In this document: piece by piece, positions 2,990-49,600 of the stretch | Layout: every line of letters starts with the position of its first letter | How positions within the stretch are numbered: position 1 is the stretch's first letter | Assembly (NCBI GenBank): GCA_031835245.2 | Contig: JAVKOQ020000071.1 | Span: forward strand, 124,001 to 188,000 | Direction: 5' to 3' | Length of the DNA: 64,000 bases | Origin: Balamuthia mandrillaris | Taxonomy: Eukaryota | Notes under the pieces: model-generated | What the model saw: the letters and a program-made list of their open reading frames with translations, nothing else | Told to the model about the DNA's origin: nothing | Database searches by the model: none | Program-made: the position numbers and the translations under genes

Positions 2990-3112
2990 AAAGATTAAAA
3001 AAAAAAAACAGAGAGGCTTCGCCACTCGTTTTTTTGGTAAGGTGCTACAGTTGTTGTTGAGAGACGGAGAAAAGAGAGAGTGCTGAGTGACTTGGAGGCA
3101 TTGAGTGGATCA

Positions 3113-4317
3113 TTATTCCGCCTTTTCTTCTTCCTTCTTCTCCTTTTCTTCCTTCTTCTCCTTTTCTTCCTTCTTCTCCTCATTCTCTTCCTTGTTCTCC
3201 TTCTTCTTCTCCTTCTTCTTCTTCTCCTTCTTCTCCCCCTTCTCCTCCTTCTCCTCGTCCTTCTCCTTGTCGTCCTTCTTTTCTCCCTGCTTTTTCTCCT
3301 CCTTCGTTTTGCCTTCCTTCTTTGTCTTCTCTTTCTTTGGCTTCTTCTCTTTCTTCGTCTTCTCCTCTCCTTTCTTTCCTTCCTCCTCTTCCGCATCGCT
3401 CGTCTCCTCCACAGTGTACTCTTCTGGAATTTTCTCTTCTGAAGCAGAAGACGAAGACACAGAGGCAGATGCAGAAGAAGCAATAGCACTGCGCATGCTC
3501 ACCATGAGATCTTTGCCCAATTGAACAGCATTCTTCAGCGCGGCAGTCCATTGATCCGCCTCTTCCTCTGAAGCGGCGCTCAGCAGGAGGTTCTGACGGC
3601 CTTCCAACTTGATGGTGAAGGGGCGCGACGCTTCTTTGTCCACCAAAGGACCCGTAGAGACTTCGAAGGAGTTCAGCTCGAAACCATCCTTCGGATCTTC
3701 CTGAAAACGCAAGCCAAGTTCAATTTTTTTTAAAAAAAAGACAACGGTTGAAAGGTAAAAGAGTATAGGGGACAAAGAGGAAGGAGAATGCATACGTTTT
3801 TAGCGTCCAACAAGAACAAAACGTTTTTGTGGATAATACAAAACTTTTTCTGCCATTTCTTGGGAGATATCGCTTTGCTCAGCCATCCCGATAACTGTTG
3901 TTGCCAAAATAACCAAGTCAGAAATAACCCGTCATAAAGGAGAACGAAGCTATAAAAGAAAAAGAAAAAAGGGGAGAAGAAAGAAACCTCTTCTGATCCT
4001 TCAAGGCTTGCAACCCATTGCTTTTCCTTGTCATCGCCCTCCTTTTCAGTCTTATCAGAGGACGCAGCAGCAACAGGACTAATGGCAGCACGAATGGCGC
4101 TCATCCAAACTTGCATCTCCTCCTCGTTGGCGGCCTGCAAGTAAAACACGCGAGCGCGCTTGGGGTGAGTGATGCTGAAACAGTGCTCACGATTGAGCTC
4201 GGTGGAAGGCTCCACGGAGCAGCCAACCAAAGCCACAAATCCTTTCTTCACAGCAATTTTCTAAAGAATAACAGAGAAATGTTAAAAGAGAAAAACAACG
4301 AAACGAGGCGAGGCGAG

Positions 4318-4370
<53 letters not shown>

Positions 4371-6070: not shown

Positions 6071-9000
6071 ATGAACCCATGGTGCCCCTTGGGCGAAGAG
6101 GCGACTTTTGTTCGCTTCCAAACTTTCTCTTTCCTCAGGCCTTTATATAGTAACCTCAAAAAAAAAAAAGAAGTGGTCCTGCGGTGCCGCTTGTGCAGCA
6201 GCTGGTACTGCCATGAAGGCACAAGCAGCAAGAGGTATGGTGGTGTTTCCATTGCCCAAGATGCGTTCTTCTGACTCTTATAGCACTCTAAAGGTGAGTT
6301 GGAAGAACGGCTTTCCACAGTGGTGAACAGACATGTATCGAGAAGCGTAAGGCTGGAGGTGCTTGGCGCCATAGCGAAACTTGTAAACTCTGAGAGCTTT
6401 CAGTTTCCTTCTGACCTCGCACAGTTTTTCCAAAGGTTCTCAGCATGATCCCTTTCTTGTTTGTATTTTCGTGTCTTACACTCTCCTTCAAACAGTCTGG
6501 GAGAGCTCCTGTTACATCCTTCTCAAACGCTTAGAGCTTGCACCCTGCGAGTAATTCGCTATTCTCTCAACAGACATCCCGATAAGACCGCCTTCCTGAC
6601 CCAACTCATCACCTCCAACGTTGGTTTCCTGATTGCGAGGTAGCGCTCTTCTTTTTTCTAACCCTTCTCTTTCTCCTGTCTCATTTCTGTTATTCGTCGC
6701 TTGAATGGACTTCGTTGAAACCAAAAAAGGTCGATGGAACGCGAGGAGGAACTTACTCAGGAAAGGGTGGAAGCTTTCAAGTTGGCGCGAGCATTCATAG
6801 GCTTGGACTGTTCCATCTTTCCTCGAAGCATCGTTGCCGCGGTCATCGCCATCGCCGAGACGCATCGTGATGCCTTTTGTAAAGCCTCTTTGGAGCTGCT
6901 CATTGAAATAGGTATCATCTGCATCCAGTCGGTTTCATCCTTTTTTCTTCTCACTTCAACAATAGCGATGACAAACCCCAAGTTGACCGCCTACTGTGGA
7001 GGGTTCGCAACGTTGGTGACGGCTAGTTTCGATCCGCACCACCAGTCCTACCAGCCTCACATACTGGCCGCCCTCCTCAACATCCTCAACGATGAGTCCA
7101 CCCGCGCCTTCCTCCGGACAGACTGTGAGTTGCAGGTATCTCCAGTTCCTCCACCGTTCTGTCGCTTCCTGTGGTCCCCTCCTACTCACAAAACATAACA
7201 AAACATACAGAGCATTGTATCGTTGCTGACAAACAATGATGCAGACGAACCACCAAACAGAGACCGTTGCGCAGCGGCCACTAGGGCCATCTTCAGCATG
7301 CTAAAAAGCTGGAGCGGGCTCATCTCCTTCGCCTCGGACGCCACCGCCTTGACCTCCATCGTGCAGTGCTTGCTCTCCTCCCACCTCCTCATCCAGGAGC
7401 TAGTCCTGGACTCCTTCTTCCAACTCCTCTTCGTTCCCAACTTTGAAACAACCAACAACACCAACGGCAACAGCAGCGGGAATGTCGATTCTTCCAATGC
7501 GGCTGCTGCCAACTCCGCAACCAAAGCAAGCAACACCAACCATCCAAACCCAAACAACAACAACAATAACAACAACATAAGCAACAACGCACCAACTACC
7601 CTTCGAAGACACATGGCTCCCTCCAAAGACGCTCGGGTGGCTGACTTTGGCATTGGAGGCGAGCTCTCCCTGCCGAGCAGGACCTACGGCGAGAGGTGGA
7701 ACCTCAAGGACAACTTTTTGGCCGCCCTCCTGAGCCTCTTCATCGCCAAGGGTTTGGTTGAGGCGTTGGTCTTCCTGGCCATGCGGGTGGAGAAGGATCA
7801 CCCTCAGCTGTCCCTGAAGGCCACCGTCCTGCTGGGTGAGATCTTGCATATGTCCAACCAGCTGTTGCCGCCCTCTCAGTGCGCCCGACTTCAGGTATAT
7901 CAGCTATACCTGTCTTTTGTTCCTCTCCCACGTTTCACTTTCTCGTTCCTTCCTCTGCTTTCTTCTCCTCTCTGTGTTGTTTAATTCCAACCACGTCATT
8001 GAGAAGTAATAATAACTAACACTTGCCGCAACACACACGACCCCAGACTCTCCCCAACTTGATATCATGCTCGGTGTCGAGGGCGGTTCATCCGAGCATG
8101 CGGTCCAATGCCAGCACCATGGTCAGCAACCTTCATCAGTTCTCCCACAACCGGGAGACCAGCAATCACTATGACTTTCACCTGAGCTTGATCGTTACCG
8201 GGGCCAACAAGTGGAGAAGGAGGAAAGGCATGGACAAGAACTTGGACCGCATCGATGACGTGAAGCGGAAGATCGACTGGAGCATGGATGAGAACCAACT
8301 CACGGCCAAGCTGAAGCAGACACAAGTACTTCTTTTTCTACTTCTATTGTTCTCTGCTGTTATGAGCTGCTCTCTTCTTTATTCGATCTCTGTTCTCTCT
8401 TTCTTCTCTCTCTCGCTCTCTCTCTTCTTCCCTTTAGTCTTTCTTCTCTGCTTATTGACATACAAAAAGGTGTTAACGACAAAGGACTATACGAGATGGG
8501 ACTGGGACGTCATAACAGAAGCCTTAGAAGGGCCGTTACGCAACCCTGCCCACCTCAACTACGCCCTCCACACCAAGTTCATCAAGCGCATCATCTCGTT
8601 CCTGCAACCCACTTCAAACAAGTTTGCCAGCATACCGTGCTCTCCGGTTTGTACTTTTCCATGTGAACAGCCTTCACTTCTTCTTCTTTTCTTACTTTCG
8701 GTCTCTCGTCCTCTTCCTTTTTGTTGATGCCCATAGGAGGCTATCAAGTATGTGAGGGCCGCTTGTCAGTTGATGGAACTATTGCTCTCTACCGAGGAAG
8801 GCACGACCTTCCTCTCCGAGAGTCGGTTGATATCTCACATTTCCGATCTTCTGAAGGCTGAAGTGGATGGAGTAAGCTTTCCTATGCTCTCCTTTTTTGT
8901 TTTCAGACATTCTGATAAGTTTTTCTCTTGTTGTTCGCAAAAGAATGGAGGAGCATCCACTCCATCCGCTTCTTCCGGTTTCTCTTCGTCTTCTTCTTTC

Positions 9001-12000
9001 TCTTCGTCCTCTTCCAAAAGGCAAATAGACATCAGGCCAGAGAATGTTCATAAGACTTTGGTGAGGGAGTACTTCACCCTGTTGGGAACGTTGAGCAGGT
9101 AAGTGAAATTTCGTTTTTCTGTTTTATTTCCCGAATTACAACACGACCCCTGTGGGTTCCTTCGGAGTTTTCACGGTCCGTGACACCAAATGCTTGGTTG
9201 TCGGGCACCAAGGTCTACATTCGTTCGGAGGCCTGGACCAGCAAGACTTGCACCTGGTGCCTCCATGTGACTCACGAACAGAAGCAACACAACCAGCGTG
9301 AGCGAATCTTCGAGTGCGGACGCAGGGACTGTGGGATACGACTGGATCGAGATATAAATGGAGCTCGCAACATACTCCTTAGGAGCCTCTGTTGCGGCGT
9401 TGCCCGATGGAGCCATATGGGGGCGTGCTGATGGGAAAGTGGATGGGCGCTTCTGTAGCCCTCTAGCCCACCCCATCACCGCGTCTTCGCAAGAACTTTC
9501 ATTTGTGAGTTTACTCACTTGTGTGATTTTTAATCCATCAGCTATCCCGCCGGCAATGACGTGCTGAAGAAGGCCAAAGTTTTTGCTCATCTGGGAGCCT
9601 TGTTGAGTCTTCAGGGTCGCGATGACCTTCCGTTCCTCATTCTTTCCTGTCTAGACTACAACCTGTACTTCCATCTTCTTGCTCCTTGCTCCATTTCATT
9701 CCTCTTATGTTAACTTCTTTCTGCACAGAGCGGGCTATTCCAGAGTGTTGTTGCAAAAGTCTCTTTCCTCGTCCTCCAAAGTGGTTCGATACATGGCCAC
9801 CAGGCATATGCGCGTCCTGTTGAGAGCCGGTGTTGCGAACTTCTCTGCGTGGGGCATAGAGTTCCTTGTCACTCAAGTTATATTTATTCATTCTTCATTC
9901 TGTCCTCCTTTTTCTCCTTGGCTCTCTTCTTGTTCCCGCTTCTCTTTCATCATCCGCATTCTTTTGAGACAAACGAACCAACCTTCTATTCTTTTATCTT
10001 TCTTTGTTGCTATAGCTGGCCGACAGCAACAAGCGAGTCAAGGAGCTGGCGTTAAGCATCCTGGATGAAGCCTGCGACGAGGACGAATGTCTCGAGTCCC
10101 TCATTTCCAAGAAGCCCCGTTCCCTGCTGGATATGGGGGCAGAGGGCAAGTCCCTCGTCCTTCGCTTTCTCTCCAGAGAGCAGGGCCTGCAGGTAAGTGA
10201 AATTTCGTTTTTCTGTTTTATTTCCCGAATTACAACACGACCCCTGTGGGTTCCTTCGGAGTTTTCACGGTCCGTGACACCAAATGCTTGGTTGTCGGGG
10301 CCGTGTGGAAACTATTTAAGCAACCGCTCCGTTCTTTCCAGTCGTATCCCACAGTCCCTACATGTCACAAACCACCACCATTGACGCTACCACTACCATT
10401 ACCCCACGACTCAGAGAACCCACCGAAGATCTGCACTACATCACCCCCACGAAGCTGATCAAACGCTATGGCGTCTCCCTCAGCGGGCTGGCCAAGTGGC
10501 ACACGGAGGGCAAGGTGGCGGCCCTCCGCACCCCAAGCGGGCACCGCCGCTACGCGGCAGAGCACGTTAGAGAGCTTCTTGGCCTCCCCGCCGCGGTCCC
10601 AGAACCCGAGGCCACCGAAAAGATCAAGGCCATCTACTGTCGAGTCTCCAGTCACAGACAACGAGAGCACCTCAAGCATCAAGTTGAGCGTATGCGAGAA
10701 GCCTACCCGAGGCACAAGGTCTACAGCGACATCAGCTCGGGCATCAACTGGAAGCGCAAGGACTTTGTCGCCCTTCTGGAGCGAGTCCTTGCTGGACATG
10801 TCGAGGAGGTTGTGGTTGCCCACCGAGACCGCCTCTGTCGGATCGCCTACAAGCTCATCGAGCACATCTTCCGTAGGTGCGGAACCCGTCTCCTGGTGCA
10901 CCGTCCGGACGACGAGGACGACGATGAGGCTGAACCAAGCAACGTCCTCGCCGAGGACCTCCTCTCCCTCGTTACCGTCTTTGTCTGTAGACACCACGGT
11001 CAAAGATGATATACAGCTGGCCAAGGAGGCAGCTCGAGCACGTCAAAGAGGCCAAGGCAAACCAAAAAGGGCGACAGAGGAGGATCCAAACGACGACGAA
11101 GAGGAGGAGGAAGATCCGACGCTGTTCAAGACGAGAAAGATACGTCTGAGGCCCACCAAGGAACAAGCCCGGATCCTCAACCACTGGTTCGGAGGGGCGA
11201 GGAAAGTCTGGAACACCACTCTTCGAGACTGCAAGACAACGGAGAAAGAAGAAGAGGAGGAAAAGAAGAGGAGTAGAGTGGCGTGGAAGCTGAGTCGGAT
11301 GCAGGGCGTCTGCGTGGTTAAACCTAGAATCATATTCGATTACTTGGAAGACGTCCCCTACTCCATCAAGCACGAGGCGGTAAAGCAGCTCCACGGCAAT
11401 TACCTCACCTGCTGGACGCTCAAGAAGCAGGGTCATATCCGACGCTTCTCCATCAAGTACAAGCGCAAAAAGGACCACCGCACCGAGTCCATCAAGATCC
11501 TTGGACATTACGTCCACTGGTGGAAGGGCTTCATCTACCCCAACGAGCTCCACGTGAACGAGCGTTGGAAAGAAGCCAATGAAACCCGCAAGAGGACACC
11601 CAGACGACGGCGGTTGCCGAATCCCCACGTTAAGCACATAGACCCCATGTTCGACCCTGTAGCGTATGCTTTAGAAGGCCTGGAGTTGGACGACAAGGGC
11701 CGACTGAGACGAACCTGCACACTGCACAAGGACAAGCGTCAACATTTTTGGCTCTGCGTGCCGATCCCGATCCAACATCATGAACGGGCTCCTGATAACC
11801 AAGGGAGCATCGTGGCCTTGGATCCAGGGGTTCGCACCTTTCTGTGTGGATATAGTCCTACCGAGAGAACGGTGAGGGAGTTTGGACGCAACGACTTTGG
11901 TCGCATCTGGCGCCTCGGAAAGCATGCCGACGCCCTGCAGTCCAAAATCGACCGCTCCCCACCGAGCCGCCGCAAGAGAAAACTTCGCGCTCTGCTCAAA

Positions 12001-13813
12001 CTGAGAAAGAGGGTCACCAACCTGGTCGATGACTTTCACCGCAAGACGGCCCTCTTCCTGTGCCGCCGCTACGACCACATCATCATCCCTCCCTTTGGTG
12101 TGAAGGGCATTACGGCCACCCGAGGGAGGCGACGGAGGAAGATCGGCAAAAAGACCGCCAGGATGCTCTATTCCTGGGGACATTACCGATTCCGCCAGTG
12201 GTTGCTGCACAAGGCGAGGGAATGGGGCACCAAGGTCTACATTCGTTCGGAGGCCTGGACCAGCAAGACTTGCACCTGGTGCCTCCATGTGACTCACGAA
12301 CAGAAGCAACACAACCGGCGTGAGCGAATCTTCGAGTGCGGACGCAGGGACTGTGGGATACGACTGGATCGAGATATAAATGGAGCTCGCAACATACTCC
12401 TTAGGAGCCTCTGTTGCGGCGTTGCCCGATGGAGCCATATGGGGGCGTGCTGATGGGAAAGTGGATGGGCGCTTCTGTAGCCCTCTAGCCCACCCCATCA
12501 CCGCGTCTTCGCAAGAACTTTCATTTGTGAGTTTACTCACTTGTGTGATTTTTAATCCATCAGTACCTCCAAGAAACAGGCTTCGTCGACTCGGAGCTGG
12601 AGCTGTGGAGACAAACGGAGAGCCAGAACTATGTCATGGACATCGAGAAAGCCTTGGACCATACCTTTTCGGATGCCAAGCGAGTGGTCTCGCAGGGCCA
12701 GAAGAAAGGAGTGGTGAACCCTCCTCCCCATTTCTATGGAGAACTGGCCAGAACGGAGCCCGGCTGCTCCGTCTTGAGGGAATCCGGTCACATTCCCTCC
12801 ATGGTGCGGCGCCTGCAGAGCGGACAGGGCTCCTCCCTTTCTTCTCGCGCCATTCTTTGGGCATTGGTACTTGTCTTTCTTGCTATGTTGTCGTTTCTTT
12901 CTTACATTCTCATCTTCTTTGTCTGCTCGCATGAACACAAGGGACACATCGGCTCCTCAAAGACAGGGTTGAAGTTGTTGGAGGAGGAAAAGGCGGTAAA
13001 CTTGATGGTGAACCTTGCCGAAACGAGTCCTTGCCTTTCCATTCGTGGGTACGTCATTCACTTTCTACGAAAGCACTCGTTCAGGTTCTTGTGTGTTGTT
13101 AACACTATTGTTTTATTTTTTTAAAAAAACCAGCACGTGTTTCAATATAATGGGCCTTTTGACGAGAACGGAGGAAGGACGAGGCTTGTTGGCCGCTTTG
13201 GGGTGGGAGAGTCCCGCTTCCCTAAAGCCCAACGTTTGTGTGCCTCGCGACCCGCAAGCTAGCGGGTTCTTCAAGGTTTCTTCTCTTCTTCTTCTTCTTG
13301 TTCTTCTTGTTCTTCTTCTTCTTCTTCTACTTCTTCTTTCTTCCCTCTCCTCTGACAACACAACCACAAAAGCTTCAACAGTGCCAGTACCAAGGCTCAT
13401 GGCCACAAACAAACCCCAAAGTCCCTTCTCTCCTTCTCACTTCCAGCCCCCACAAGAGCAAGAACAAAGGACAAGAAGAAGAAGAAGGCGCAACCACCGA
13501 ACGAAGCAACGAGATCCAGGTGGCGGTGGCCAACCTCGTCAACTACATCACCTGCGACAAGGCTCTGGCAAGCTTGGAGCGCATCAAGGCCAACGATACC
13601 GGCGTTCTGAAGGATCCTCGGACGCGCAGCTTCATGCTGAACATGTTGGAGAGCTACAAGTATCGCTTGAAGCTGCGGCGCTTCATCTACAGTTTGATGG
13701 AAGAGGTGGATGAGGAGGGCGGCGGCGGAGGAGGCAAGTGGGATGGCGCCTTTTGTAAGGATTTACCTCCGGCTCAACCGCGTAGATTCACTTGGCTCGC
13801 AGCTAGAAAGTAG
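6071..13813 (+). CDS. RICTOR: Rictor / Pianissimo (TORC2 subunit), multi-exon, carrying two transposon-introns; start codon uncertain
   Basis: Rictor-type motifs: EERVEAFKLARAFI, KATVLLGEILHMSNQLLP, VLTTKDYTRWDWDVI, EYFTLLGTLS, RDDL...LDY, VRYMATRHMRVLLR, LVLRFLS...GLQYL, PPHFYGELARTEPGC, LWAL(G)HIGSS...G, SPCLSIRGTCF. Stop TAG at 13811-13813. Confidence 0.9.
9099..9541 (+). mobile_element. Non-autonomous 443-bp internal-deletion derivative of the IS607/Fanzor element, forming a phase-2 GT-AG intron in Rictor
   Basis: First ~107 bp match 10193ff and last 336 bp match 12228-12563 with one SNP (A9295 vs G12317). Ends are GCAG|GTAAGT ... CCATCAG|. Removal gives LLGTLS-S-YPAGNDVLKKAKVF...RDDLPFLILSCLDY in frame. 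Confidence 0.95.
10337..10359. repeat. Left arm of a perfect 23-bp internal inverted repeat (right arm 12346-12368)
   Basis: TCCAGTCGTATCCCACAGTCCCT is the exact reverse complement of AGGGACTGTGGGATACGACTGGA in the 3' end of the Fanzor CDS. Confidence 0.95.
10362..11009 (+). CDS. tnpA: IS607-family serine recombinase/transposase TnpA
   Basis: N-terminal MerR-like winged HTH (YGVSLSGLAKWHTEGKVAALRTPSGHRRY) ahead of the catalytic domain: AIYCRVSS (catalytic Ser codon about 10647), DISSGINWKR, VVAHRDRLCR, EDLLSLVTVF. HTH-first order is characteristic of IS607. Intronless. Confidence 0.95.
   Translation: MSQTTTIDATTTITPRLREPTEDLHYITPTKLIKRYGVSLSGLAKWHTEGKVAALRTPSGHRRYAAEHVRELLGLPAAVPEPEATEKIKAIYCRVSSHRQREHLKHQVERMREAYPRHKVYSDISSGINWKRKDFVALLERVLAGHVEEVVVAHRDRLCRIAYKLIEHIFRRCGTRLLVHRPDDEDDDEAEPSNVLAEDLLSLVTVFVCRHHGQR
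10468..12453 (+). CDS. tnpB: Fanzor2 / TnpB-like RNA-guided endonuclease; start may be ATG 10468, 10798 or 10924
   Basis: KTRKIRLRPTKEQARILNHWFGGARKVWN (TnpB N-terminal HTH), RuvC-I IVALDPGVRTF, IIIPPF at the canonical RuvC-II position with the relocated Glu in SEAWTSKTC, zinc finger CTWC...CGRRDC, RuvC-III LDRDINGARNI. Uninterrupted ORF. Confidence 0.93.
   Translation: MASPSAGWPSGTRRARWRPSAPQAGTAATRQSTLESFLASPPRSQNPRPPKRSRPSTVESPVTDNESTSSIKLSVCEKPTRGTRSTATSARASTGSARTLSPFWSESLLDMSRRLWLPTETASVGSPTSSSSTSSVGAEPVSWCTVRTTRTTMRLNQATSSPRTSSPSLPSLSVDTTVKDDIQLAKEAARARQRGQGKPKRATEEDPNDDEEEEEDPTLFKTRKIRLRPTKEQARILNHWFGGARKVWNTTLRDCKTTEKEEEEEKKRSRVAWKLSRMQGVCVVKPRIIFDYLEDVPYSIKHEAVKQLHGNYLTCWTLKKQGHIRRFSIKYKRKKDHRTESIKILGHYVHWWKGFIYPNELHVNERWKEANETRKRTPRRRRLPNPHVKHIDPMFDPVAYALEGLELDDKGRLRRTCTLHKDKRQHFWLCVPIPIQHHERAPDNQGSIVALDPGVRTFLCGYSPTERTVREFGRNDFGRIWRLGKHADALQSKIDRSPPSRRKRKLRALLKLRKRVTNLVDDFHRKTALFLCRRYDHIIIPPFGVKGITATRGRRRRKIGKKTARMLYSWGHYRFRQWLLHKAREWGTKVYIRSEAWTSKTCTWCLHVTHEQKQHNRRERIFECGRRDCGIRLDRDINGARNILLRSLCCGVARWSHMGAC
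12400..12583 (+). ncRNA. Predicted omegaRNA: scaffold in the element right end, guide from the flanking Rictor exon (TACCTCCAAGAAACAGGCTT); 5' boundary unknown
   Basis: Position follows known TnpB/Fanzor biology. Visible pairings: TGATGGG 12451-57 with CCCATCA 12494-500; GAAAGT 12457-62 with ACTTTC 12517-22; TCTT-cgc-AAGA; GTGAG-ttta-CTCAC. No expression data. Confidence 0.55.
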
Positions 13814-13953
13814 GCAAAAGAGAAGAAGGGAAGGGAAGAATAAAGTAGGCCTTGTAGGTTTTGTAGTCAGTATATTAGTTTCTTCTTCGAAGAAGGAAGA
13901 AGGAAGAAAAAGGAGAAAAAAGGGGTTCAAATTTTCTGGAAGTGGCTGCGGGT

Positions 13954-15169
13954 CTACTGTTTGGTGAGGTATCGTTGAAGGCTGTTGGCAAGAACGGAGC
14001 TGCGGAAGGAAAGACCTTTGGTCTTCTCTATTACTTGTTGATGTCTTTTTGTGTGTTTGTTTTATTGTTATTGTTAAAAAAATGAGAAAAAGAAAGTACG
14101 AGATTAAAAAAAAAAAGAAAGGAGTAGGTACACGCTGGGGTATTGGGAGCCCATGACAATCTGGTTGGAGGCAGAGTCGATCTTGGCATCGAGGCGGGCA
14201 TTACGAATCATGTTAACGATCCAACGCTCGGCAGCTTCTTGGTCCATGTTCAATTTCTCAGCCAACATTCTGGATTATTTTTCCACAGAAAGTCAGTTTG
14301 TGTAAATAACAAAAAAAACTGAACACGGACAAAGAAAGGAAAGCAGAAGTCATACCCAAGGTCAATGCGTTGATGAATGCGACAATAGGTCTCAAAGATC
14401 AGGAGACGTGCATTCTCAATAAACTCCGCCCTGCAAGACACCAAGAAAAAGTCATTCAGGAGGACGTCCTCGCACTGACGCAACTTTTGCTGAGCACCAT
14501 CAAAGTCGAATTTCACATAGAGATCCTCCACAAACTCCGTGATGGGATCTTTGTAGGTGTAGCTCTCCTGTTGGATGACATCGACGAGCTCCTTTAACAC
14601 GCCGCGCTTCCTTCGGTTGGTGATAACGGCAGTGGTGAGGTAGCGCAGAACGTGGGGGCAAGTCATCTGGATGGTATTAAGATACTTCTCGTTGAAGAAG
14701 AGGTCGATGATGCCGGTTCGTCCATTAGCAGAGTTGAAGAAGACAAAGAGACTCCAGTGCAGCAGCCAAGTGCGTTGTTGCAATCGCATCAGTGGAGATT
14801 TGAAGGTCTAGTTTATTTTGGGAGATAAGAATTTGTCGTATCGCAAAAGAAGAAGATAAAGCAGAGATTTTAAGACTATACCTTTGTTTCAATAGCTTCC
14901 TTCAAAACTTTGAGGTCCTCGTTGGCCTCATTCCAGTTTTGTTTGAGGATCTCAGCAGCCAGCTTACCCCAAAGAGCGCTAAAGTTCTTCTCGGGATCGG
15001 AGCTGAGACTCCTGAAATGGGACAAGTAGAGTGCTGCTCCGGAGTAGTTACCGCACTCGTATTGGAACTTGGCGTGGTCGTAGAGAGCTTCCAAAGCATT
15101 CGCTTGTATCTGTTCGAAATAAGGGTAATTGATTTTTTAGCACTGGAGCGAACGGAGGAAAGAAGATAG

Positions 15170-15221
<52 letters not shown>

Positions 15222-20519: not shown

Positions 20520-21490
20520 TACTCGAATGTGAACGCTGACGAAATCTTCCTCTGGAGCAGAGCTGATAGTGAAAGGATGCCACTCGTGCGGTGCAATGTA
20601 TGGACAGTTGAGGAAGAGGTATTGGCCTGGCTTGTACCTGAACTTGGATTTCTTCATTTGGAGCTCTATTACTTTGGATGGATGTTGAATGGCCTGTTTA
20701 TCATAATATTAGATAACATTTTAGAGAGAAGAAGCCAGAAACCGCTAGGTACCATCAAAAGAACGGTAGATTGATGACCACGCAAGATCCGGACCATCCT
20801 TTCTACGAGATACGCAACAGCAGGACCAAGCACCCAAGCCCAAAAGGTGGGTGGCTCGAGGATCTCACCGGCGCCATGAGCGCACAACAAACCGTAGAAT
20901 ATGATGAACAGGTGGTGAGTGAACCAGAAGGCCTCAAAGTTCGGCCTTCTCACACTCTCCACCGCTGACGAGTACATCAAAATCATGCAAAAGACCACAA
21001 TATGTCCTGAAAAACAGAGAGGTAAGATGACAATGAGAGAGAGAGAGAGAGAGAGAGAACAGAACAAACCTGTAATGCCAGCAATGGTAGTCCAGGCAAA
21101 GTCCCAGGTGGTGGGCATTTCGCCATCAGGTTCGAGGTCGCTGTACCATGCCGTCAGGTCTCCGCGCGACTCGGGATCTTCGATATCCCAATGCTCCAAC
21201 GTGTTGAAGTTCATGTAATGCGATGTACTTGAGAAAGGCATTAGTACATCGAAGAAGAAGAAAGAAGAACGAAGATGGAGAAAGACAGAAGAAACGGAGA
21301 AGAGAGAAGCAATACATGTGGACTGCTGACAAAAAGGCGATGAACCAAGCTATGTTCTTGTGGAAGACGATAGCTTTGTCAACCGGAAGATACGTCCCAA
21401 TCCATGTACCCCTTATCCTGTTGTTTCGTTATTGTTATTTTTTTTATTTTAACAGAAAGCAAAGAGAGAGAGAAGAAGAAGAGAGGAGAG

Positions 21491-21570
<80 letters not shown>

Positions 21571-21620
21571 AGGGAGGAAGAGAGGAAGAGAGGAGAGAGA
21601 GACGAAGGGAGGAAGAGAAG

Positions 21621-21653
<33 letters not shown>

Positions 21654-22073
21654 CAAAGAAAGGATTGACAGAGAGGTTAGCAGAGAAGAGAATAGTTACC
21701 AAGACAAAAAGTTACGAAGAACAGGAATAAGAATGATGGCACAGTTGAGTTTTAGGGCAGCAGCGCTGCAACGAGCTCCGATAAGCCCCCAGCTCAACAC
21801 TTTAAATACTTCATCGTCCACCACATAATAATCTGTTTCGCGTGGTGGTGGTTATTATTTTCAGGAGTTACAAAGCCAAATTACCTCAGCAACACGAGTC
21901 AAGAAACAGAGCGTACGTATAAATCGTTCGAGAATAACTGCAATGTTGGCAAGCACGTAGAGAAGAATAAATATGGCTTTGGGTCCTTCGTTGATCCAGT
22001 AGGTCTGAACGTCTTTACATGTTAGGAACCGAACCTTTGGGATTGACTTTATACAATGGAGAACGTTTCCCAT
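19542..22073 (-). CDS. noxA: NADPH oxidase catalytic subunit (gp91phox/NoxA-like)
   Basis: [22 protein letters not shown] (haem His), [12 protein letters not shown]...[15 protein letters not shown] (FAD), [30 protein letters not shown], terminal YYHKENF. No N-terminal EF-hands seen. Confidence 0.93.
21463..21653. repeat. Long imperfect (AG)n microsatellite in a Nox intron
   Basis: Interrupted AG-dinucleotide runs, i.e. (CT)n on the coding strand. Confidence 0.9.
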
Positions 22074-22527: not shown

Positions 22528-23130
22528 CTAAGAGGAAAGCTCCGCCACTTTCTTCGCAAAGAGCTCAGCAGCTCTCTCCCAGACGGCTGCCATGGGGTCT
22601 TCCGCCTCTCGGCCCTTCTCCACCCAATGCGGCAGAGCCAACAGGCTGGACAGCAGATCATCCGAGAAGTTGATGCTGCTCTCCTTCGGCACCAGCGTAG
22701 GGAGGTGATCAATCGCCACAACGTCCAACAAAGGAGATGAGGAGGAGGAGGAAGAAGCGCCTTTGCTTGGCAGCACGCGAAGAATGGGTTCGACCAGAGT
22801 GGTCTGGTCGTTGTAGATGGGCAGCGGGTTGTTGGGATTGGTGTAGTCGCAGGAGACGTCCACCACCACCGAGAGCTGTCTCGTGCCCTTCTCCTCTTCT
22901 TGCTGAATGAGGTCCATGGTGAGGAAAGGAGGTATCTTGCCCATCAGGTAGATGCAGTTCACAAAGATGTCGCACTGGAGGATCTGTGGGAAGGGGCCAC
23001 CGGCGGCCGTCTCCTCCATGTCCCAGAGAACACGCTCTCCGATGTAGTTCTTCACCTGGTCCAAAAAGTAGATAGCTCCTCCTCCACATCTTCCTTTTTT
23101 TGTTTCTTTCATTAGGAACAAGAGAGAGGA

Positions 23131-23194
<64 letters not shown>

Positions 23195-24162
23195 AGAGAA
23201 AGAGAAAGAGAAAGAGAAAGAGAAAGAGAAAGAGAAAGAGAAAGAGAAAGAGAAAGAGAAAGAGAAAGAGAAAGAGAAAGAGAACAAAAGAAGGAAGAGA
23301 GAAGGAAGGGATAGAAACGAAAGAATAGGAATGAGGATAAAACCTTTGGCACCCATGATCATGACGCGCGGCCGCTTACCGGCAACCTTCTCAGCTGCTT
23401 GCAGGGCATTCCCAACTGTCTCAGCCAATGCCTCGATGCTGCTGGCCGGTTGCAAGGCTTTCATTGGCTCCTCTCCGTGCAACTGTTGGTGAGCCCATGC
23501 CAGCCTTTTTGACGCAGAAGAAGAAAGTGACAACGGAAGAAAGATTAGTAGAAGAACAACAAAGAAGCCTAGAGGGAGAGAGATAGAAACAGGAATGAAG
23601 AAAGAAACAGGAATGAGGCATGGAGAAAGAAGAAAGGATGAGAAGTGCAGAAGAAAGATATAAGAGTAGCAGAAGGAAAGAAGACAACAGAAAAAAGCAC
23701 AGAGAGAGAAGCGTACAAGCCAACAGCACAACCCGCCAAACCAGCAGCTCGTCCAAAGGCAGCCACGCGCCTGCCCTTGTCATCCACCAGGAACTCCAGG
23801 TCCAGCAGGAGACCCGAGCCCTTCACGAACCGGGCCAAGACGTCCCGCCAGCCCGTCTGGTTCTTGAAGCAGTGCGCAAAGTAAATGTGTCGGTGAGGGA
23901 GGGGGGAGTCGTCCCCTTCCGGCAATTCCTTTACGCCAAAGATGAGGCGGGAAAGGGGGGCCTCCCGCCAGCTGCCCGCCTCGACCAGGGTGCAGCCGGC
24001 CTCCTCGTAGTCTCCGTCGGGGAAGGCCCTGTCGGGGCTGCGCTCCACAAAGATGCGGAAGAGGCCGCTGTCGAGGAGCTTCTTGGCGTTGAGGGGGGTG
24101 AGCGGGGTTCTCCTCTCGTTGAGCTTGGTTTCGGCTCTTACGTGCAATTCTACCACTACCAT
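22528..24162 (-). CDS. LYS1: Saccharopine dehydrogenase [NAD+, L-lysine-forming]
   Basis: LHVRAETKLNERRTPLTP; IFGVKELP; HIYFAHCFKNQTGW; LLDLEFLVDDKGRRVAAFG; MGAKGRCG.GA; WDMEETAAGGPF; DIFVNCIYL; VVDVSCD; AIDHLPTLVPKESS..FS. Two introns. Confidence 0.93.
23135..23283. repeat. Compound microsatellite: (AG)n followed by (AGAAAG)n, in a LYS1 intron
   Basis: Read directly from the sequence. Confidence 0.95.
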
Positions 24163-30117: not shown

Positions 30118-31858
30118 TTCTCCTCTTATTGAATTGTTGGACAATAGTCATTGGATAGAAAAGCATGAGTATGGTATGTTCGCTCTTCCTTTCTGTTATT
30201 TCTCCCTCCTCCAAAAATAGGAAGTTATTCTTAAGTTAGATGGAAAAACCTTATATCTGGATAAACAAAATAGACTTTGAGAATAAAGTTCTTCGAAAGA
30301 GGTTCCTGTGGTTCGCCCAAAACGTTGTAGAGCAGGAAAAGATGAGAGACATGCTTGCCAAAGCATTTGACAAAGCCATCCAAAAACTGAACAGAACCTA
30401 CGACAAATTACAGCTCATTGACGAACTCAACTACATCAAACGACGTCAAGAAACGATTGTTGAGGTATGGTTTATGTTCTTATTATTTTCATTTGTTGGT
30501 TTGTTCCAGAAACAAACAGAAAACTATTGCAGAAACTTAAAACATTCGAAGAAGAGCCACTGTCGAACCCTCGTGAAACCAACGCCCCCAGGCCCATGCT
30601 ACCCAAGAACTTCCAAGCGAGAGAAAGGTTTTTGTTGGACTGGCACCCCACGGAGATTGCTAGGCAGATCACCCTCATCGAATTGTACATTCTTTGTTAT
30701 CTTCTTCATTGCTTCGACTTTCTTTACTCATTCTTTTCTTACGTGGTAAATCAACAACAGTGATTTGTTTCAGCGGATACAACCGAAAGAATTCTTGAAT
30801 CAAAGTTGGAACAAGCAAGGCAGAGAAGACAAGGCGCCTGGTATATGTGCCCTGATAGATAGGTTTAACGAGGTACCCACTCCACTACCTCCACTCATCG
30901 TCATCGTATTGAACTAAAAAGCTCCTTATTTTTGTTGCAGATGAGCATGCTGATGGCAACTTCCATTCTGTTGTTAGAAGATTTGGACGACAGACGAGCA
31001 ATGCTCAAGAAATGGATACTAGTTGCTGAGGTTCATTCTCCCTTTTCTCGAACGAACTTTTCTCGTTTTCAACTGGACTCAACTTTTAATCACAGGAATG
31101 TTTTACTATGAATAACTTTAATGCATTGATGGAAGTCGTGTCGGGGCTGAACGCTCCTTCATTGACAAGGCTGTCTCGAACGTGGGATGCGCTATCCTCA
31201 AAAACTAAAGATAAGTTTCGCGAGCTGACGTTGGTTACCGCCACTGAGAAAAACTTCAAAACCTTGCGAGAGCGTGTGGCTAGCGCTCCTCCTCCAAAGC
31301 TGCCTTATATTGGCACCGCTTTAGCTGACCTCACCTTCATTGAAGAAGGTGCCCTCCTCTTCTTCCTTTCTCACTAGCAACTTTATTGTTAAATATTCAC
31401 ATGCGTGAACAGGCAACCCAGACTACACAGAAGAGGGGCTCATCAACTTTGCAAAGCGGCAGGTAAGTGAAATTTCGTTTTTCTGTTTTATTTCCCGAAT
31501 TACAACACGACCCCTGTGGGTTCCTTCGGAGTTTTCACGGTCCGTGACACCAAATGCTTGGTTGTCGGGGCTGTGTGGAAACTTTCATTTGTGAGTTTAC
31601 TCACTTGTGTGATTTTTAATCCATCAGCTGCTGACAACTGTGATAGTGCACATGCAAACCTACCAACAACAGCGATACAACTACATGGCTGTACCGCCAC
31701 TCAAAACCTACTTGTTGACGCATCCACTGCTGCCAGCCGAAGAATGTTATGAGCGCTCGTTGCGGTTGGAGCCCAGAAGAGTCACTGTACGAGCCAGTGA
31801 AGGCAGAAAATCCAGCGTCAATCGCAAGGGCTCAGTTCAGAATGTTCTTTCCTCGTAA
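28696..31858 (+). CDS. Ras guanine-nucleotide exchange factor (REM + CDC25 domains), carrying a mini transposon-intron
   Basis: AASLTKLVE; FFITCRSFTTP; WHPTEIARQITLIE; IQPKEFLNQSW; MNNFNALMEVVSGL; PYIGTALADLTFIEEGNPD...LINFAKRQ|LL; YERSLRLEPR. Confidence 0.9.
31463..31627 (+). mobile_element. 165-bp miniature non-coding derivative of the IS607/Fanzor element, forming a phase-0 GT-AG intron in RasGEF
   Basis: 121 bp of left end (one SNP vs 10193-10313) joined at AACT microhomology to 44 bp of right end (12520-12563). Ends are GCAG|GTAAGT...CCATCAG|. Removal gives GLINFAKRQ|LLTTVIVHMQTYQQQRY. Confidence 0.95.
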
Positions 31859-37681: not shown

Positions 37682-40334
37682 TTAGGACTCGGATAATTCG
37701 CCCAAGAGATTGGAGAAAGGGCCGGGGAGGCCCTGCTGCGCGTCGATCGACTCCAGCAGGTTCTTCACGAGGTTAAAGTCCACGTCCACGGGGCGCAAGC
37801 TTTCTTCCGAATCAGCGGACCCGCCTCCTGTTTCACCCGCATCGAGGACTTTCTCAAAGTCCTCTGCCAGCTTGGTTTGCCGCAATTCCTCGTCCATTTG
37901 AGCCATGAACTGTCGCGTACTGAAGTTGGTGTCTTCCGTTTCTTCTTCGGAAGCTTCTTCATCCTCTTCGCCCAGTGCAAAGAAATCTTCCGGCTCTTCG
38001 TCCGAGCTCTCCCCATAGTCCATGTTGGTAGCTTCTACATCCAGCGCCTTTTGCATAACATCTATAAACTTGCCATAGTCCAGGTCAAATTCTTTGTCCA
38101 CCTCGGTGAGGTCTGTTGGAAACTCGGCTCCTTCGTAGTCCGAAATATGTTGCACGAACGATTTCATTCCGCCGACTACGCGTTGCAAAGACTCAAGATC
38201 CAACGCCTTGCCCTTGTCCCCTTTTGTTGCAGTTTGTTTCCGTCCTTGTACATCCTTCTCCAACTTCATCTCCTCTTCTCTCTGTTTGGCCCGTCTAAGT
38301 CTTTTCTTCTCTTCGTAGTCTTCCAATTCTTGTTGCTTCTTTTTAAGCAGTTGGTCGACTTCCTCTGGTGTCACGCGCATCCAAGAAGTATCGTCATCAT
38401 CAGTGAGTTCAGAGGTGAACGTGGCTGCAAAAGAAGTTCGCTTCCCTTCTTTATCAACATCCATTAAGGTATACTCTACTCGGGAGAGCAACTCGTGCAG
38501 CCGTACCACCGGGCCGTGTACCTCTTCCTCCAAGCTCTCGCCAGTTTCTAACTCCTCGTCAAAGTTTTGGTCTCCTTCGCCAAACTTGATCTCTAGAAAC
38601 TTTTGTTTGGCCACTTCTTCTCGGGCTCGATACCCCTTAGAACCTGGAAGTTGATCTTGAAAATAGTTAAGTTTTTCTAAGCTTTGTTTGTATGTCTTCC
38701 AATCTTTATCCGAAGAAAAAGGATAAGCCTGGTTGTGTGGAAAACATGTTAGCTTCATACATGTCAAGAACTTCACCTTTAAAAGAGTACAGTTCAACCA
38801 ACCTTAATTTCGGGAAGTTCTTGTGTCGTATTGTCTTTCACTCTATTTCTTTTCTCTGAGTGATACAGCATTTCAAATCCACATGCCTGGACATGGTAAA
38901 ACCACATTAGAACAACGTTCATTTAGATAGCAGAGAGATTAGGATGAGGGATAAAGGAATGAGCGTAGTATTCGTACCACTTTCATACCAAGCTCTATGG
39001 CAGCGTAATCTGGATGTGTTTCAGGAGGCAGCTGGAAACACTTAGGCGGAAAGAACTGTTGGGAGGTTACCTGAGCGTATAGACATTTTGTGAAGCGGAC
39101 CATTGTCATAATGTAGCCTTTGCCACGACAGCTCCTATCTGGCTGAATGCTAGAGACTTGTTTCTTTGTAACATAATCTCCCACTATGTTGCCGCAGACT
39201 CGCTCCATCTTGGAGCTCACAAACATGTCGTCCATGTCGCGATAGTAAAATGCTCTAACGATCGGGGCTATCAGCTGCGGGCATTGACGCAACAACAGAG
39301 CAACCTCCACTGGAACGTAGCATCGAGCTCTATGCACCTCGTGGCATTTTGCTGGATAACTAACAGATAAGATAAGATAAGATAAGAAGGAAATTAACAT
39401 ACCACAGACAGTGGAACCAGTAGCAATATACGTACTCTTCTAATCGCTTAGCTATCACCGCTTGAACTTCAGGACTGGCAACAGTGTTGACGGACAAGGC
39501 AGGATCGCCTATAAGTCTCAATGCCGTTGGTATGCTCTTTAGGATGGTTGGGATGATTGGAAGTTGCGCCGGCGTCTTGGGCAACGGGATTATGTGCAAT
39601 TGACCTCTTCTGATCCACACCTGGTTCCTTAAGTTAAAACCCATGTTTCCAACAATTGACATTGCGAAGAGAAGAAAGAAAGAAACGACAAGAAAGAAAG
39701 AAAGAGAGAAACGACAAGAAACGACAAGAAAGAAGGAAGAGAAGAAAAGTAAGAACAATGCGAATGAAGAAGATTCAAACAGAAGAGAAAAAACAAACAA
39801 ACAAAGAGAAGAGGTTACCCTGTTTTCAGAGTTTTCAGGTTTGAGCCAAGAAGGAATGGTCATGGCTGCTTCGATGAGAAGGAAATAACCATCGTTATCC
39901 ACCACACTGCATTCATATAAAGCCTGGTTGGTTTTGCTACGAAAAAAAAATGAGGCGAGAAAAACAAAAACAAACCTGATGATAGTGTTGGGAAACCGTT
40001 TGGAGACTTCGTAGAGCAGGAACACTATCATCCACTCATCTTCTATGTTGTCTCCAAACTTGGTCCTGCCGTGGAGGTGGGCGACATCTTGAGCGCCCGC
40101 CCCCTTGTGAACGCGCAGATGGAAGGGTTGGTGCTGCCAGATGTGCGCGGCGGTGAAAGGGGAGAGAAAGTCAAGAATCTGGGCGCGCAGGTCCGCCAGC
40201 CGCTGCGTGGAGGGCGCTTCCTCCTCAGGCTCCCAAAGGTAGATGCGGTATTCCACCCAATCCTCCTCCTCCCGCTCTCCTTGAGACCCTCTCCACGTTC
40301 CTCCTTCTTGTGCCCACGGACTTGCTCCGTGCAT
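37682..40334 (-). CDS. ECD: Ecdysoneless / hSGT1-family protein
   Basis: HIWQHQPFHL; HGRTKFGDNIEDEWMIVFLL; DNDGYFLLIEAA..IPSWLKPENSENRVWIR; PQLIAPIVRAFYYRD; FTKCLYAQ; ELGMKVACGFEM; PVDVDFNLVKNLLESI..QQGLPGP.SNLL. Confidence 0.92.
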
Positions 40335-40347
40335 TGTTCGTTTTGTC

Positions 40348-40422
<75 letters not shown>

Positions 40423-40822
40423 CCTCCCCTTTTGCTTTCTCGGCTCTTTTTCCTTTGTTGAATTCCTGAAATACCATTCATACTTTCCGCGCTTCGCGTT
40501 CCTATGATTTTTTGCATGGTTGGCATTCCGAGATCCAAAAAGCCCCAAAAATAAGCAATTATCGCTGCTGCTGCGCCGAAGAAGGAAGAGAGCGACACAA
40601 GCGGCCGTGTGCCCCAAAGCCCTGCGCTACGAGGAGGTTCAGCGGGGCCGTTGTTCCTCCTCCTCCTCGTCTTTGTTCGCGTTTTTTCATTCCTCGTGAC
40701 GCTGCGACGCATTGTCCAGGTTTGAAAGTCACCACAGCAGCAACATAGGCCTTTTTTTTTTGTAAAAACCGCACGGCTATTTGTGGTGTGCTTCGTTCTG
40801 CTGGCTCTACCTCTTCTTTGGG

Positions 40823-46653: not shown

Positions 46654-49600
46654 ATGCGAAAAGGAGAGGGGAAGGAGAGAGCAGATGAAGCAAAAACAGG
46701 GAGACAGCAGCAGGGAGCCAAGCATAGATGCTCTCAAGAAAGGATCCGCTCCCAAGAGAAAAAGAAGGAGGGAAGGAGGCAAAGAGGCTCCTTCTCATCT
46801 CCACGGCCATCACTCTCCTTCTCATGCTGTGCCTCGTCGACGCTACCACCGTTATTCCTCTACTTCTTCCTATTTCCTCTTCTCTGCATTCTCTCTTTCT
46901 TCCTTCCTTTGGTTCTGCCTTCTGTTGTGTACCATAACCCTCTCCCTCACCCCTTCCACTCCCTCTTTCTTCGTCCTGCCTTCCACTCTCTCTTCCTTGT
47001 TCTTCCTGGCACCTTTGTCTAGCTCCGCCACCCAACAACATTACCCTGTTATGGCCGCGCCAGTGCTTCTAGCCAACGCACAGCAAGTTGAGCCACCAAC
47101 TGACCTGCCTTCGGGTCCTCAACACCTGAATCAAGTCAACCTCCTGTGGTGGGGTTCGTGTTTTCTTTCTTGGTCCATTGTTGGAGGAAGTGTGATCCAT
47201 CAGTTCTTTCCAGATCTTTGATCTTTACCACTCACTCACTTTCGCTCTTTCTTTTGAGCAGAACCAGATTCAGAAAAAGAGGCACCAGCAACAGCACCTA
47301 GCGCTGCTGACTTTCACCAGGGTTTCTTTGACCACTTTGTACACAGTGAAGAGTTTGGGGAACCCTTACCCCAAAGCGGCGTACGGAAGATCACTCATGT
47401 TGCGGCGAGCCATCGCAGCGCAGATCTTTATGAGTTTGTTCCGGAGAGGTACTTGCTCACTTTTCTTTTGCACGATGATAACTCTCTTGTTTAGTCATCT
47501 GCTTCTCCACTTGCTCACTCAAATTTGTTATACAGTCGACGAGTGGTGAGAAGAGGGGAAGCGGTAGGAGGGACGGATACTGGTACACAATACCCAAATA
47601 CTCATTTTCAAGTGGCGATCATACCCCCTTTCTTGGATTTCAAAGAGCGGTAAGAAGCTATCCAGCAGTGCTTTTAACGTTCAAACTATTTCTCACTCTG
47701 CTTATTTTTTCATTTTTCGTTATGCTCAGACCGGTTTGCATGCCTGCGGTCGAGTCGATCAGTATAATCAATACTTCTGAAAGAGACGGCTTACATCTCT
47801 TTTCTATAGCGTCAGAGAGCGTTCATTTCCATTCTTCTTATTTCAAACAATCGGTTCGTCCCACTACCATCACAATTCATTGATAACTTTGAGTCTGTTT
47901 GCTCAACCACGTTGTGTTTGTGTATTCAACATAGGTCATTCCTCCTTTGGGAAATACAACAGTGAGCATTGTTTTTCTTCCTCGGACAGTTGGAGTTGTA
48001 GAAAACGACATAATCCTTCAAAGCAGCGTGGGCAACGTGGCTTATAGGGTTCTCTCTTCTTACTGTCCACTTTTTCTCTCCACTCAAACGAGTTAGCTTA
48101 CCCGTTGTTATTGCTGATAGGTTTATGGACAAGGAGTTCAAAATCCCTACAAGTTGCAACCCTTCGTTGGAGTTAAGGTTCCTGCAGACGTGACCTACAG
48201 TCCTCCTATTGAGATGTACAACCCCAACGACGAGCCCCTTCAGATCAAGGAGGTTTTTACCAGTGGAGGCTTTCTACACCTTACTCTTCCAAAAGGAGAA
48301 GATCCTCACACTATTTGGGTAACGTTTTATTTTTCAATTTTTTTGTTTTTACTTTTGCGCCATGTTTTCTAAATGAGACGCTCTTGATTTCTGATTTGCA
48401 GACCATTCAGCCTCATACCAAAAAACCTATTGTTAAGCTGGCATTTGTGTCACAGCAACCCGGCAAGTATACAGGCTATGTGAACATAAAAACGGACCAG
48501 GACAACATGATTCTTCACGTGGACGTTCTGGTGGTAAAAGGGGGGTTGCATCGTACACCGGAAGAACTGGACTTCGCAACTTTGACGTCAACATCGGATC
48601 AGCGACAAACCTCTCTAGTGCTGCTCAATTCTGGAGATTCGCCAGTCCAGGTATCAGAAATTTTCCCACTCACTCCAGACCCTCATCTGCAAGTTGACTT
48701 TACTCGCACTGTGATACCTCCTGCATCGGTAAATATCTTTGTTTGCATCTACTGTCTCATTTTCTTTTGTACTCAATCTATTTTTCCCAAACAGGAGAAA
48801 CAAATTGCTACTTTCACATATTCTGGAAGAAACGAAGGCCAATTTACTGGAAAGGTTTATTATTATTTTTTTCATCCTCCCTTCCAAGCTCACATTTCCC
48901 AACCGGTATAGTTGTTGCTGAGGACAAACGACACCAATCCTGCAAATGCACGGATGGAAATTCCATACAAAGCACGAGTGTTGCACGGGTAAGCTTATCA
49001 TTGCTTGTCACAACTGTTCATTAATTTTTCACTCTACTTAATGCTCATCCTTGTTCTTGTTGTCGCAGCTCTTTGGGCTACCATCCCCTAAATACAACAT
49101 TTAGTGTTGGGAAGCCTCCGTTTGAGCCGGTAGTACAAAGCTTAGTCTTTACAAATAAGTTCAGCGTGCCTTTGGTTTTCTATTCTGCAGAAATAGAAGA
49201 TCCAAATTTCGAGGTCGTGAACTTTCGCCCTGGCACTACTGCTCAACCCGGGGCATCATGGGTACTTTATAATTGTTTACTATCGTCAAAACTGTAGCCC
49301 GTTTTTTACCATATTTTTCTTTGATTATTAGCCTCCTGTGACTATCTCATTTTTGGCAAACAGCACGGACATGATGTATTCCACTGAATTAGCGCTTTCA
49401 ACCAACGCCTCAGTAATACGGATTCCGCTTTATTGCTATCATGGCCGCTTAACTTACTCCGTCACTGATGCTTCCGATCCCGAGATCCTATCCAATGACA
49501 AGGTATTTTGCTTGTTTGGTCTCTTTCCTTTTTTTTTTCGGCTATCAACTCACCGCATTTTTCAATGTGTAGATCGATTTCGGAATGCTAGGAGTGAATG

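Follow-up and report, generated by a model that had tools for sequence, protein, structure and literature searches.

The origin of new spliceosomal introns is an old open question, and the intron-generating transposons known to us are mostly small elements with terminal inverted repeats (TIRs) and an unknown mobilising enzyme. Here we consider a transposon of the IS607 family, which was found in three copies inside coding exons of the amoeba Balamuthia mandrillaris, in a stretch of 64,000 nucleotides (nt) of contig JAVKOQ020000071.1 (NCBI GenBank assembly GCA_031835245.2, positions 124,001 to 188,000 of the forward strand). This whole 64-kb stretch is called the window below, and all coordinates are counted from its first letter. 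The copies read CAG/GTAAGT...CAG/, where the slash marks a boundary between exon and element. In our opinion it is likely, with a probability of about three in four, that they were inserted by the recombinase TnpA from a circular form, the core shared by element and target serving both as the exon end of the donor site and as the acceptor AG.

The bacterial transposons IS607, ISXfa1 and IS1535 contain a gene of a serine-recombinase TnpA with a helix-turn-helix (HTH) domain, followed by tnpB; they show one short identical motif at both junctions, which is present once in the target. In IS607, strand exchange takes place over GG at the transposon termini and in the target, (G)GG is preferred, there are neither TIRs nor target-site duplications (TSDs), and a circular intermediate is thought to be used (PMC6188088, PMC4058570). 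For IS607-type TnpB, the target-adjacent motif is the same as the insertion motif, and in ISXfa1 GGG is cut and CGG is spared (bioRxiv version of PMC10711439). Related elements of giant viruses and eukaryotes (ISvMimi, ACa-1/-2) combine an IS607-type TnpA with the nuclease Fanzor2, also without TIR or TSD (Bao and Jurka 2013, PMC3627910). In their available parts, the Fanzor papers (PMC3627910, PMC10432273, PMC10530073, PMC10711439) describe introns inside Fanzor genes or make no mention of introns, and none of them has the element itself as a spliced intron; the word 'intron' gave 0 matches in PMC3627910, PMC10432273 and the bioRxiv version of PMC10711439.

Two other groups are similar in their relation to host RNA. 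Bacterial IStrons unite a group I intron with an IS605 or IS607 transposon carrying TnpB (PMC10690162, PMC4227781, PMC13521648); such TnpA/TnpB transposons leave host RNA with the help of a ribozyme, their insertions are phenotypically silent, and the right end must serve both splicing and the formation of guide RNA. Introners (PMC9860276, PMC12130899, review PMC11282704) are near-identical copies that form whole introns in unrelated genes, have short non-autonomous derivatives, differ in presence between strains and carry splice sites or make them at their ends, and most of them use a TSD for one splice site (PMC11282704). The classes of introners given in the available part of the 2025 survey (PMC12130899) are TIR, long terminal repeat (LTR), non-LTR, Helitron and Crypton (tyrosine recombinase) elements, with 72% unclassified and no class with a serine recombinase; Balamuthia, IS607, Fanzor and TnpB gave 0 matches in 12 of 14 supplementary files of this survey. 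No work joining introners with IS607, Fanzor or serine recombinases was found in the literature searched, and the matches listed for IS607 together with the spliceosome included a classification review and an IStron preprint, neither of them relevant.

All three copies of the Balamuthia element lie on the + strand of the window and have the layout exon-CAG/GTAAGTGAAAT...TAATCCATCAG/exon. The window contains exactly three occurrences of the left-end word CAGGTAAGTGAAAT (9096, 10190 and 31460) and three of the right-end word TAATCCATCAG (9531, 12553 and 31617; there is also one chance match with one mismatch at 47193), and the two words are always paired. Copy 2 (10193..12563, 2371 nt) is full-length and apparently autonomous. 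The two short copies derive from the long one by internal deletion, with microhomology at the joints: copy 1 (9099..9541, 443 nt) consists of 107 nt of the left end and the last 339 nt, which cover the 3' end of tnpB and the right end, and copy 3 (31463..31627, 165 nt) consists of 121 nt of the left end and 48 nt of the right end, overlapping by microhomology. Over the shared parts, the copies are 99.2-100% identical. A blastn search with word size 7 detected no further copy in the 64 kb.

The exon in front of each copy ends in CAG (9096..9098, 10190..10192 and 31460..31462, + strand), and each copy ends in CAG as well. At the spot that drew attention to this locus, positions 10189-10198 read G CAG GTAAGT. 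The left end common to the three copies (10193..10299, + strand, 107 nt) starts with GTAAGT and thus gives CAG/GTAAGT with the exon, a perfect partner of the 5' end of U1. The common right end (12516..12563, + strand, 48 nt) includes a candidate branch point, CTCAC (12536-12540, proposed from the consensus), a T-rich stretch and the terminal CAG acceptor. Because the bases 3' of the right CAG are CT, TA and CT in copies 1-3, the repeat comprises 3 nt. A repeat or core of GG at the junctions was ruled out, the right junctions being AG/C, AG/T and AG/C. Given the CAG frequency of 1.5% in the window, CAG would be met by chance at three of three left junctions with a probability of ~3.6e-6, and AG alone with that of 4.3e-4; of the only five GTAAGT on the + strand of the window, three belong to the element. 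TIRs are absent, since the left end shares with the reverse-complemented right end only two internal 6-mers and none at the tips, and the only direct 6-mer common to the 107-nt left end and the 48-nt right end is GAGTTT.

Contigs from DNA of other strains contain the corresponding empty sites. In sequencing run X6, record 20 (961 nt) joins 8457-9095 to 9539-9860, skipping the 443 nt of copy 1 and keeping the host intron 9665-9728, and record 21 (905 nt) joins 10022-10189 to 12561-13284, skipping the 2371 nt of copy 2 and keeping the host introns 12866-12940 and 13048-13132. Run X15, which belongs to another study, has both joints as in X6 and no host-intron joint; its record 15 (site of copy 1) keeps intron 9665-9728, and its record 16 (site of copy 2) includes five intron bases only, so that it is taken as DNA from the character of the run in general. 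Three letters are ambiguous at the joint in all four contigs, which means that exactly one CAG is left. As the flanks of these contigs carry scattered single-nucleotide differences from the window, they come from other strains. Copies 1 and 2 are therefore insertion polymorphisms without duplication and without footprint. Copy 3 is present in X6, where its left flank is joined to the element.

Five more contigs of X6 enter the left end from unrelated flanks, the match starting at 10188 (TGCAG) in three of them and at 10190 (CAG) in two. Together with the window copies, CAG was found at 8/8 left junctions among the contig ends listed, and the listed contig ends at the right side diverge only 3' of ...CATCAG (19/19). 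The base 5' of CAG is G in all three window copies (9095, 10189 and 31459) and at 3/5 of the further junctions; at the element's own right end, CAG is preceded by T. Shorter derivatives also occur, for instance with joints from 10212 to 12509 and from 10226 to 12544, whose left-end and right-end parts measure 20-34 nt and 20-130 nt, respectively. If spliced, they would be introns of ~75-160 nt, a length close to the host mean intron length of 113 nt (bioRxiv 10.1101/2025.02.25.640156). Contig depth hints at a several-fold excess of the element over its flanks. In X15, the element body (10300-12300) has a depth of 0-19 at 95% identity, the flanks 25-64 and the right-end bin 374-593; in X6, the depth of the body is 71-161 and that of the flanks ~12. 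By this rough guide, the number of full-length copies seems to vary between strains.

The long copy encodes two proteins. The tnpA gene (10362..11009, + strand) corresponds to a 215-aa serine recombinase with an N-terminal HTH of the MerR type (Pfam MerR, residues 30-64) and a C-terminal catalytic domain (Pfam Resolvase, residues 90-214, 1.8e-15). TnpA reaches 145.6 bits against the equivalog model of the IS607 family transposase (NCBIfam NF033518, cut-off 110), in agreement with the family to which the initial annotation had assigned it, and its motif YCRVSSHRQ aligns to the region of the catalytic serine in IS607-type domains (PDB 3lhf and 3ilx; 6dgc was also aligned). The relatives of TnpA are mostly unnamed metagenome proteins, the best of them with 47% identity. 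The tnpB frame (10924..12453, + strand) encodes an RNA-guided nuclease of the Fanzor2 type, whose homology begins at about 11014. Its start codon is uncertain: the frame overlaps the last 86 nt of tnpA, there is no ATG near the start of homology, and 10924 is the first in-frame ATG upstream. TnpB matches Pfam Cas12f1-like_TNB (3.2e-16) and HTH_OrfB_IS605 (8.7e-12) and scores 146.2 bits against NF040570 (cut-off 100); the closest solved relative is the mimivirus TnpB-like protein L79 (Fanzor2, PDB 9b0l, 2.6e-26). The protein thus has the TnpB fold with its HTH, RuvC and zinc-ribbon parts and stands close to the IS607-type TnpB proteins found in giant viruses. By these matches, the long copy is an IS607-family transposon with a serine-recombinase TnpA and a Fanzor2-type TnpB.

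Searches in Pfam and NCBIfam gave no DDE domain in the full copy, and the Pfam search gave no reverse transcriptase in the element. No Rfam match, group I introns included, was obtained in 9000-12700 at E up to 1, and folding of the right-end region (12300-12583) gave no greater stability than folding of shuffled sequences (z -0.54). The left-end 21-mer had 0 matches in metagenomes; a search of metagenome and viral contigs with the TnpB alignment gave pattern matches and no relative; a left-end peptide inside longer proteins was not found among the cluster representatives, to which that search was confined. Two other TnpB proteins deserve mention, namely P0122, which lies outside the window and stands for another TnpB family of Balamuthia (74% identity, with a different N-terminus and a model without recombinase domain), and the metagenome protein P0123 with 57% identity.

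In comparison with the bacterial IS607 family, the Balamuthia element thus shares the order of HTH serine-recombinase TnpA and tnpB, the lack of TIRs and TSDs, the short motif found at both junctions and once in the target, and a preferred third base, which is (C)AG instead of (G)GG. It differs by its CAG motif in place of GG, a difference within the family and no bar to membership, by the consensus 5' splice site at its left end and acceptor signals at its right end, and by its position inside coding exons of a eukaryotic host, with TnpA at most 47% identical to any protein found.

All three copies are inserted in sense orientation, in phases 2, 0 and 0 for copies 1-3. Copies 1 and 2 interrupt one Rictor-like gene, and copy 3 a Ras-GEF-like gene. 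Copy 1 splits a codon, and the Pfam RICTOR_M match covers positions 11-31 of the model before the copy and 35-72 after it, the three residues between them being the split codon and the next two. At copy 2, Pfam RasGEF_N_2 is matched at positions 14-71 by the upstream exon (10016..10192, + strand, its start taken from the joint of 9876 to 10016 in run X11) and at positions 72-107 by the downstream exon (12564..12865, + strand, with a joint of 12865 to 12941). At copy 3, the upstream exon gives a gapless alignment to residues 87-169 of PDB 2ije_S (E 2e-15), the small exon 31413-31462 provides 17 residues exactly filling residues 170-186, and the downstream exon starts at residue 187, its alignment being weak alone (E 0.29) but collinear. 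On the evidence of these alignments, the conserved domain match is gapless again once each copy is removed.

The RNA evidence concerns copy 2. Runs X1 and X11 are listed as 'DNA?' and 'RNA?'; since the contigs of X1 skip three host introns and those of X11 four, with GT..AG ends, both runs are read as RNA. Each of them has a contig joining 10189 to 12561 (+3) with GT..AG ends, which is the exact exon-exon joint round copy 2. These contigs have the depth of the upstream exon (18.8 in X1 and 20.9 in X11) and carry the window alleles where the empty-site strains differ. The joint is best read as the result of splicing of the 2371-nt element. Like introners, the element shows whole-intron copies in unrelated genes, exact removal from RNA as judged by the RNA-like contigs (for copy 2 only) and recent gain (for copies 1 and 2).

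The exons 3' of copy 2 (12520-13500) are much deeper in these runs than those 5' of it (9545-10189), with ~1100 vs 19 in X1 and 140 vs 21 in X11; the DNA contigs have equal depth on either side (64/64 and 11.7/11.7). Record 12 of run X13 (977 nt) starts at 12520, 44 nt inside the right end, and continues into the exons with the downstream introns spliced and with no upstream cover. Probably, transcripts start within the element and read out into the host gene.

According to the mechanism proposed, TnpA would excise the element as a circle with one CAG between the right and left ends (...CCAT-CAG-GTAAGT...), and this circle would integrate at a genomic CAG by strand exchange within CAG, without duplication. 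GTAAGT would then stand directly 3' of the core, the right end would supply the branch point and the final ...CAG, and the spliceosome would excise the whole element, with the original message restored in any phase. A guide RNA read from the right end across the junction into the following exon would direct TnpB to empty CAG sites; the cuts predicted there should promote renewed copying of the element. If the analogy with ISXfa1 holds, (G)CAG may be required for cleavage, so that intact junctions would be left uncut.

The initial annotation had proposed that the crossover core doubles as the splice acceptor, and this interpretation is right in its core and over-specific in details, so that it is partly supported. 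The CAG at both junctions of each copy (3/3) and only once in the empty site was confirmed, one CAG being left in the DNA contigs of X15 and X6, and so was the absence of terminal inverted repeats at the tips; the acceptor AG and the exon part of the donor site both fall within the repeat, as the element starts with GTAAGT and ends with CAG. The background invoked (GG as the overlap dinucleotide, a circular intermediate, no TSD) holds in the available parts of PMC6188088 and PMC4058570. As to AG being the crossover core, an invariant short repeat does stand at the junctions; the choice of AG goes further than the data, because three bases are shared and AG and CA are indistinguishable. The idea of integration at any target AG turned out to be too wide, with CAG at 8/8 left junctions seen, and a shift of the core from GG to AG would not have been enough alone, as a left end starting with GTAAGT and acceptor signals at the right end are also needed.

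Several points weigh against insertion by TnpA and subsequent splicing as set out above. An AG core and a CA core give identical sequences as three bases are shared, and the ends of the element show no clear repeated TnpA-binding motif. The activity of TnpA and TnpB is a prediction. No circle junction or backward joint was present in the contigs of five runs, and contigs are unable to show rare forms; all evidence from runs X1, X6, X11, X13 and X15 has the form of contigs. The junction counts refer to the listed loose ends, 36 + 3 further loose-end rows standing outside them. In a heterozygous strain, the RNA joint at copy 2 could instead stem from an empty second allele; the RNA-like contigs showed no spliced form of copies 1 and 3, and the raw RNA runs X19-X21 have only 7, 4 and 0 reads at the locus. 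Finally, the genic position and sense orientation of all three window copies are a pattern equally expected from selection or from spread at the RNA level.

The latter explanation is unlikely in our estimate, though slightly more probable than the other alternatives. It supposes that the intron, once excised, enters other transcripts by reverse splicing, and that reverse transcription and recombination then bring it into the genome, with the IS607 genes as passengers or of importance for the long copy only. Exact GT...AG bounds, the lack of duplication, the sense orientation (3/3) and a liking for CAG-like exon ends would follow from this route too, and empty sites in DNA do not separate it from the DNA route. 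However, the IS607 transposase of the element is intact and passes the equivalog cut-off, no reverse transcriptase is encoded, and every deletion derivative keeps both ends, which is what a DNA recombinase needs. Besides, the invariant C at -3 (8/8) is stricter than the host exon ends, with AG in 1/5, and the base after the insertion is C, T or A and not G, the consensus of ligated exons.

It is also rather improbable that TnpA has a weak or other target preference and that only those exonic insertions which made a strong donor context were tolerated. The three window copies are all exonic, where selection is strong, and IS607-family enzymes have, in the available part of PMC4058570, minimal target specificity beyond the dinucleotide. 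Nevertheless, strand exchange by a serine recombinase requires an identical 2-bp overlap in the two partners; with CAG at the element's own junction and GG ruled out, at least two of the three bases must lie in the target. In addition, the neighbouring host introns start as CT/GTACTT, AA/GTTATA, TG/GTACTT, GG/GTACGT and AG/GTGCCC, i.e., with AG at the exon end in one case out of five. Selection for CAG would be weak under such conditions; as host introns splice without an exon-end AG (4/5), target choice is favoured over survivorship.

Still less credible is the view that CAG is a true 3-bp TSD left by a trans-acting DDE transposase, which would mobilise a non-autonomous element and accept only CAG as its target. 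Formally, CAG-element-CAG with one CAG in the empty site matches such a duplication, and many known introners use TSDs as splice sites (PMC11282704, available part); against this, there are no TIRs, the full copy has a serine recombinase and no DDE domain, and the trinucleotide is invariant at 8/8 junctions. The nesting of an IS607 element in ordinary old introns, with intron ends made of host sequence, was rejected as practically incredible, for although transposons often sit in introns, the identity between copies in two unrelated genes begins with the initial G of GTAAGT and ends with the final G of CAG, and the whole unit is absent from the DNA of other strains.

The TnpB frame is 99% identical to NCBI proteins named 'Transposase [Balamuthia mandrillaris]', which form a cluster of four members on five contigs, and there are at least five annotated full-length copies. 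One of these proteins, P0242 (1224 residues), reproduces the locus described here (~9380-13900) as Rictor-like exons fused to the frames of the element. In P0121, P0241 and P0243, TnpA and TnpB are fused via predicted introns at three different places, and the fusion introns of the annotated transposases look like artefacts of the predictor. The element is thus represented in public data as coding exons or as fusion 'transposases' and not as an intron, so that gene models of the organism need correction.

The long copy also contains a perfect 23-nt inverted repeat, whose left arm (10337..10359, + strand) lies just 5' of the ATG of tnpA and whose right arm (12346..12368, + strand) lies within the coding 3' part of tnpB and recurs in copy 1 at 9324-9346. 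The duplex has -47.2 kcal/mol, and the chance expectation of such a repeat is 4e-8. In the 2371-nt copy, the donor and the left arm are 144 nt apart, the acceptor and the right arm 195 nt; the left arm is absent from the short copies. By pairing of its arms, the repeat could bring the long intron down to a length like that of host introns, or it could join the guide-RNA region to the tnpA leader. The window is rich in long GA/CT and GAA-type microsatellites in both orientations (3100-3420, 4300-4370, 15150-15220, 21450-21660, 23110-23330, 40320-40450 and others), and its remaining repeats are GA/CT microsatellites and not copies of the element.

The bacterial IStron is the nearest functional analogue of the Balamuthia element. 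Both are TnpA/TnpB transposons that leave host RNA, and the right end, which in IStrons has to serve splicing and guide-RNA formation, would have this double task here too; the difference is that the IStron uses a ribozyme, whereas the Balamuthia element, with no Rfam match, relies on the host spliceosome through GTAAGT...CAG. From the introner classes of the available literature it differs by its serine recombinase, from most introners by the lack of duplication, and further in that an apparently autonomous copy itself sits as an intron. It is possible, with a chance that we place a little short of even, that a eukaryotic, spliceosome-dependent counterpart of IStrons is dealt with here, i.e., an autonomous IS607/Fanzor2 transposon whose (C)AG recombination core is a proto-splice site. 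Relative to the literature searched, the new point is a serine-recombinase transposon as a likely route to new introns; introners, IS607 and IStrons were already known.

Such an element would extend the pairing of transposition and splicing known from bacterial IStrons to the spliceosome and place a Fanzor nuclease where splicing and guide-RNA formation compete for one junction. We have here the autonomous element, the family of its enzyme and the short derivatives, together with polymorphic insertions in conserved genes of a culturable amoeba. Since serine recombination proceeds with a short identical overlap, without duplication and with precise excision, scarless gain and scarless loss of introns are predicted. 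If this is true, one enzyme makes introns scarlessly and, by excision, deletes them scarlessly from DNA, and an RNA-guided nuclease homes the element into empty alleles. Such elements could then explain, in part, why introns have long been noted to be in excess where exons end in ...AG/, and could also account for some of the many unclassified introner families.

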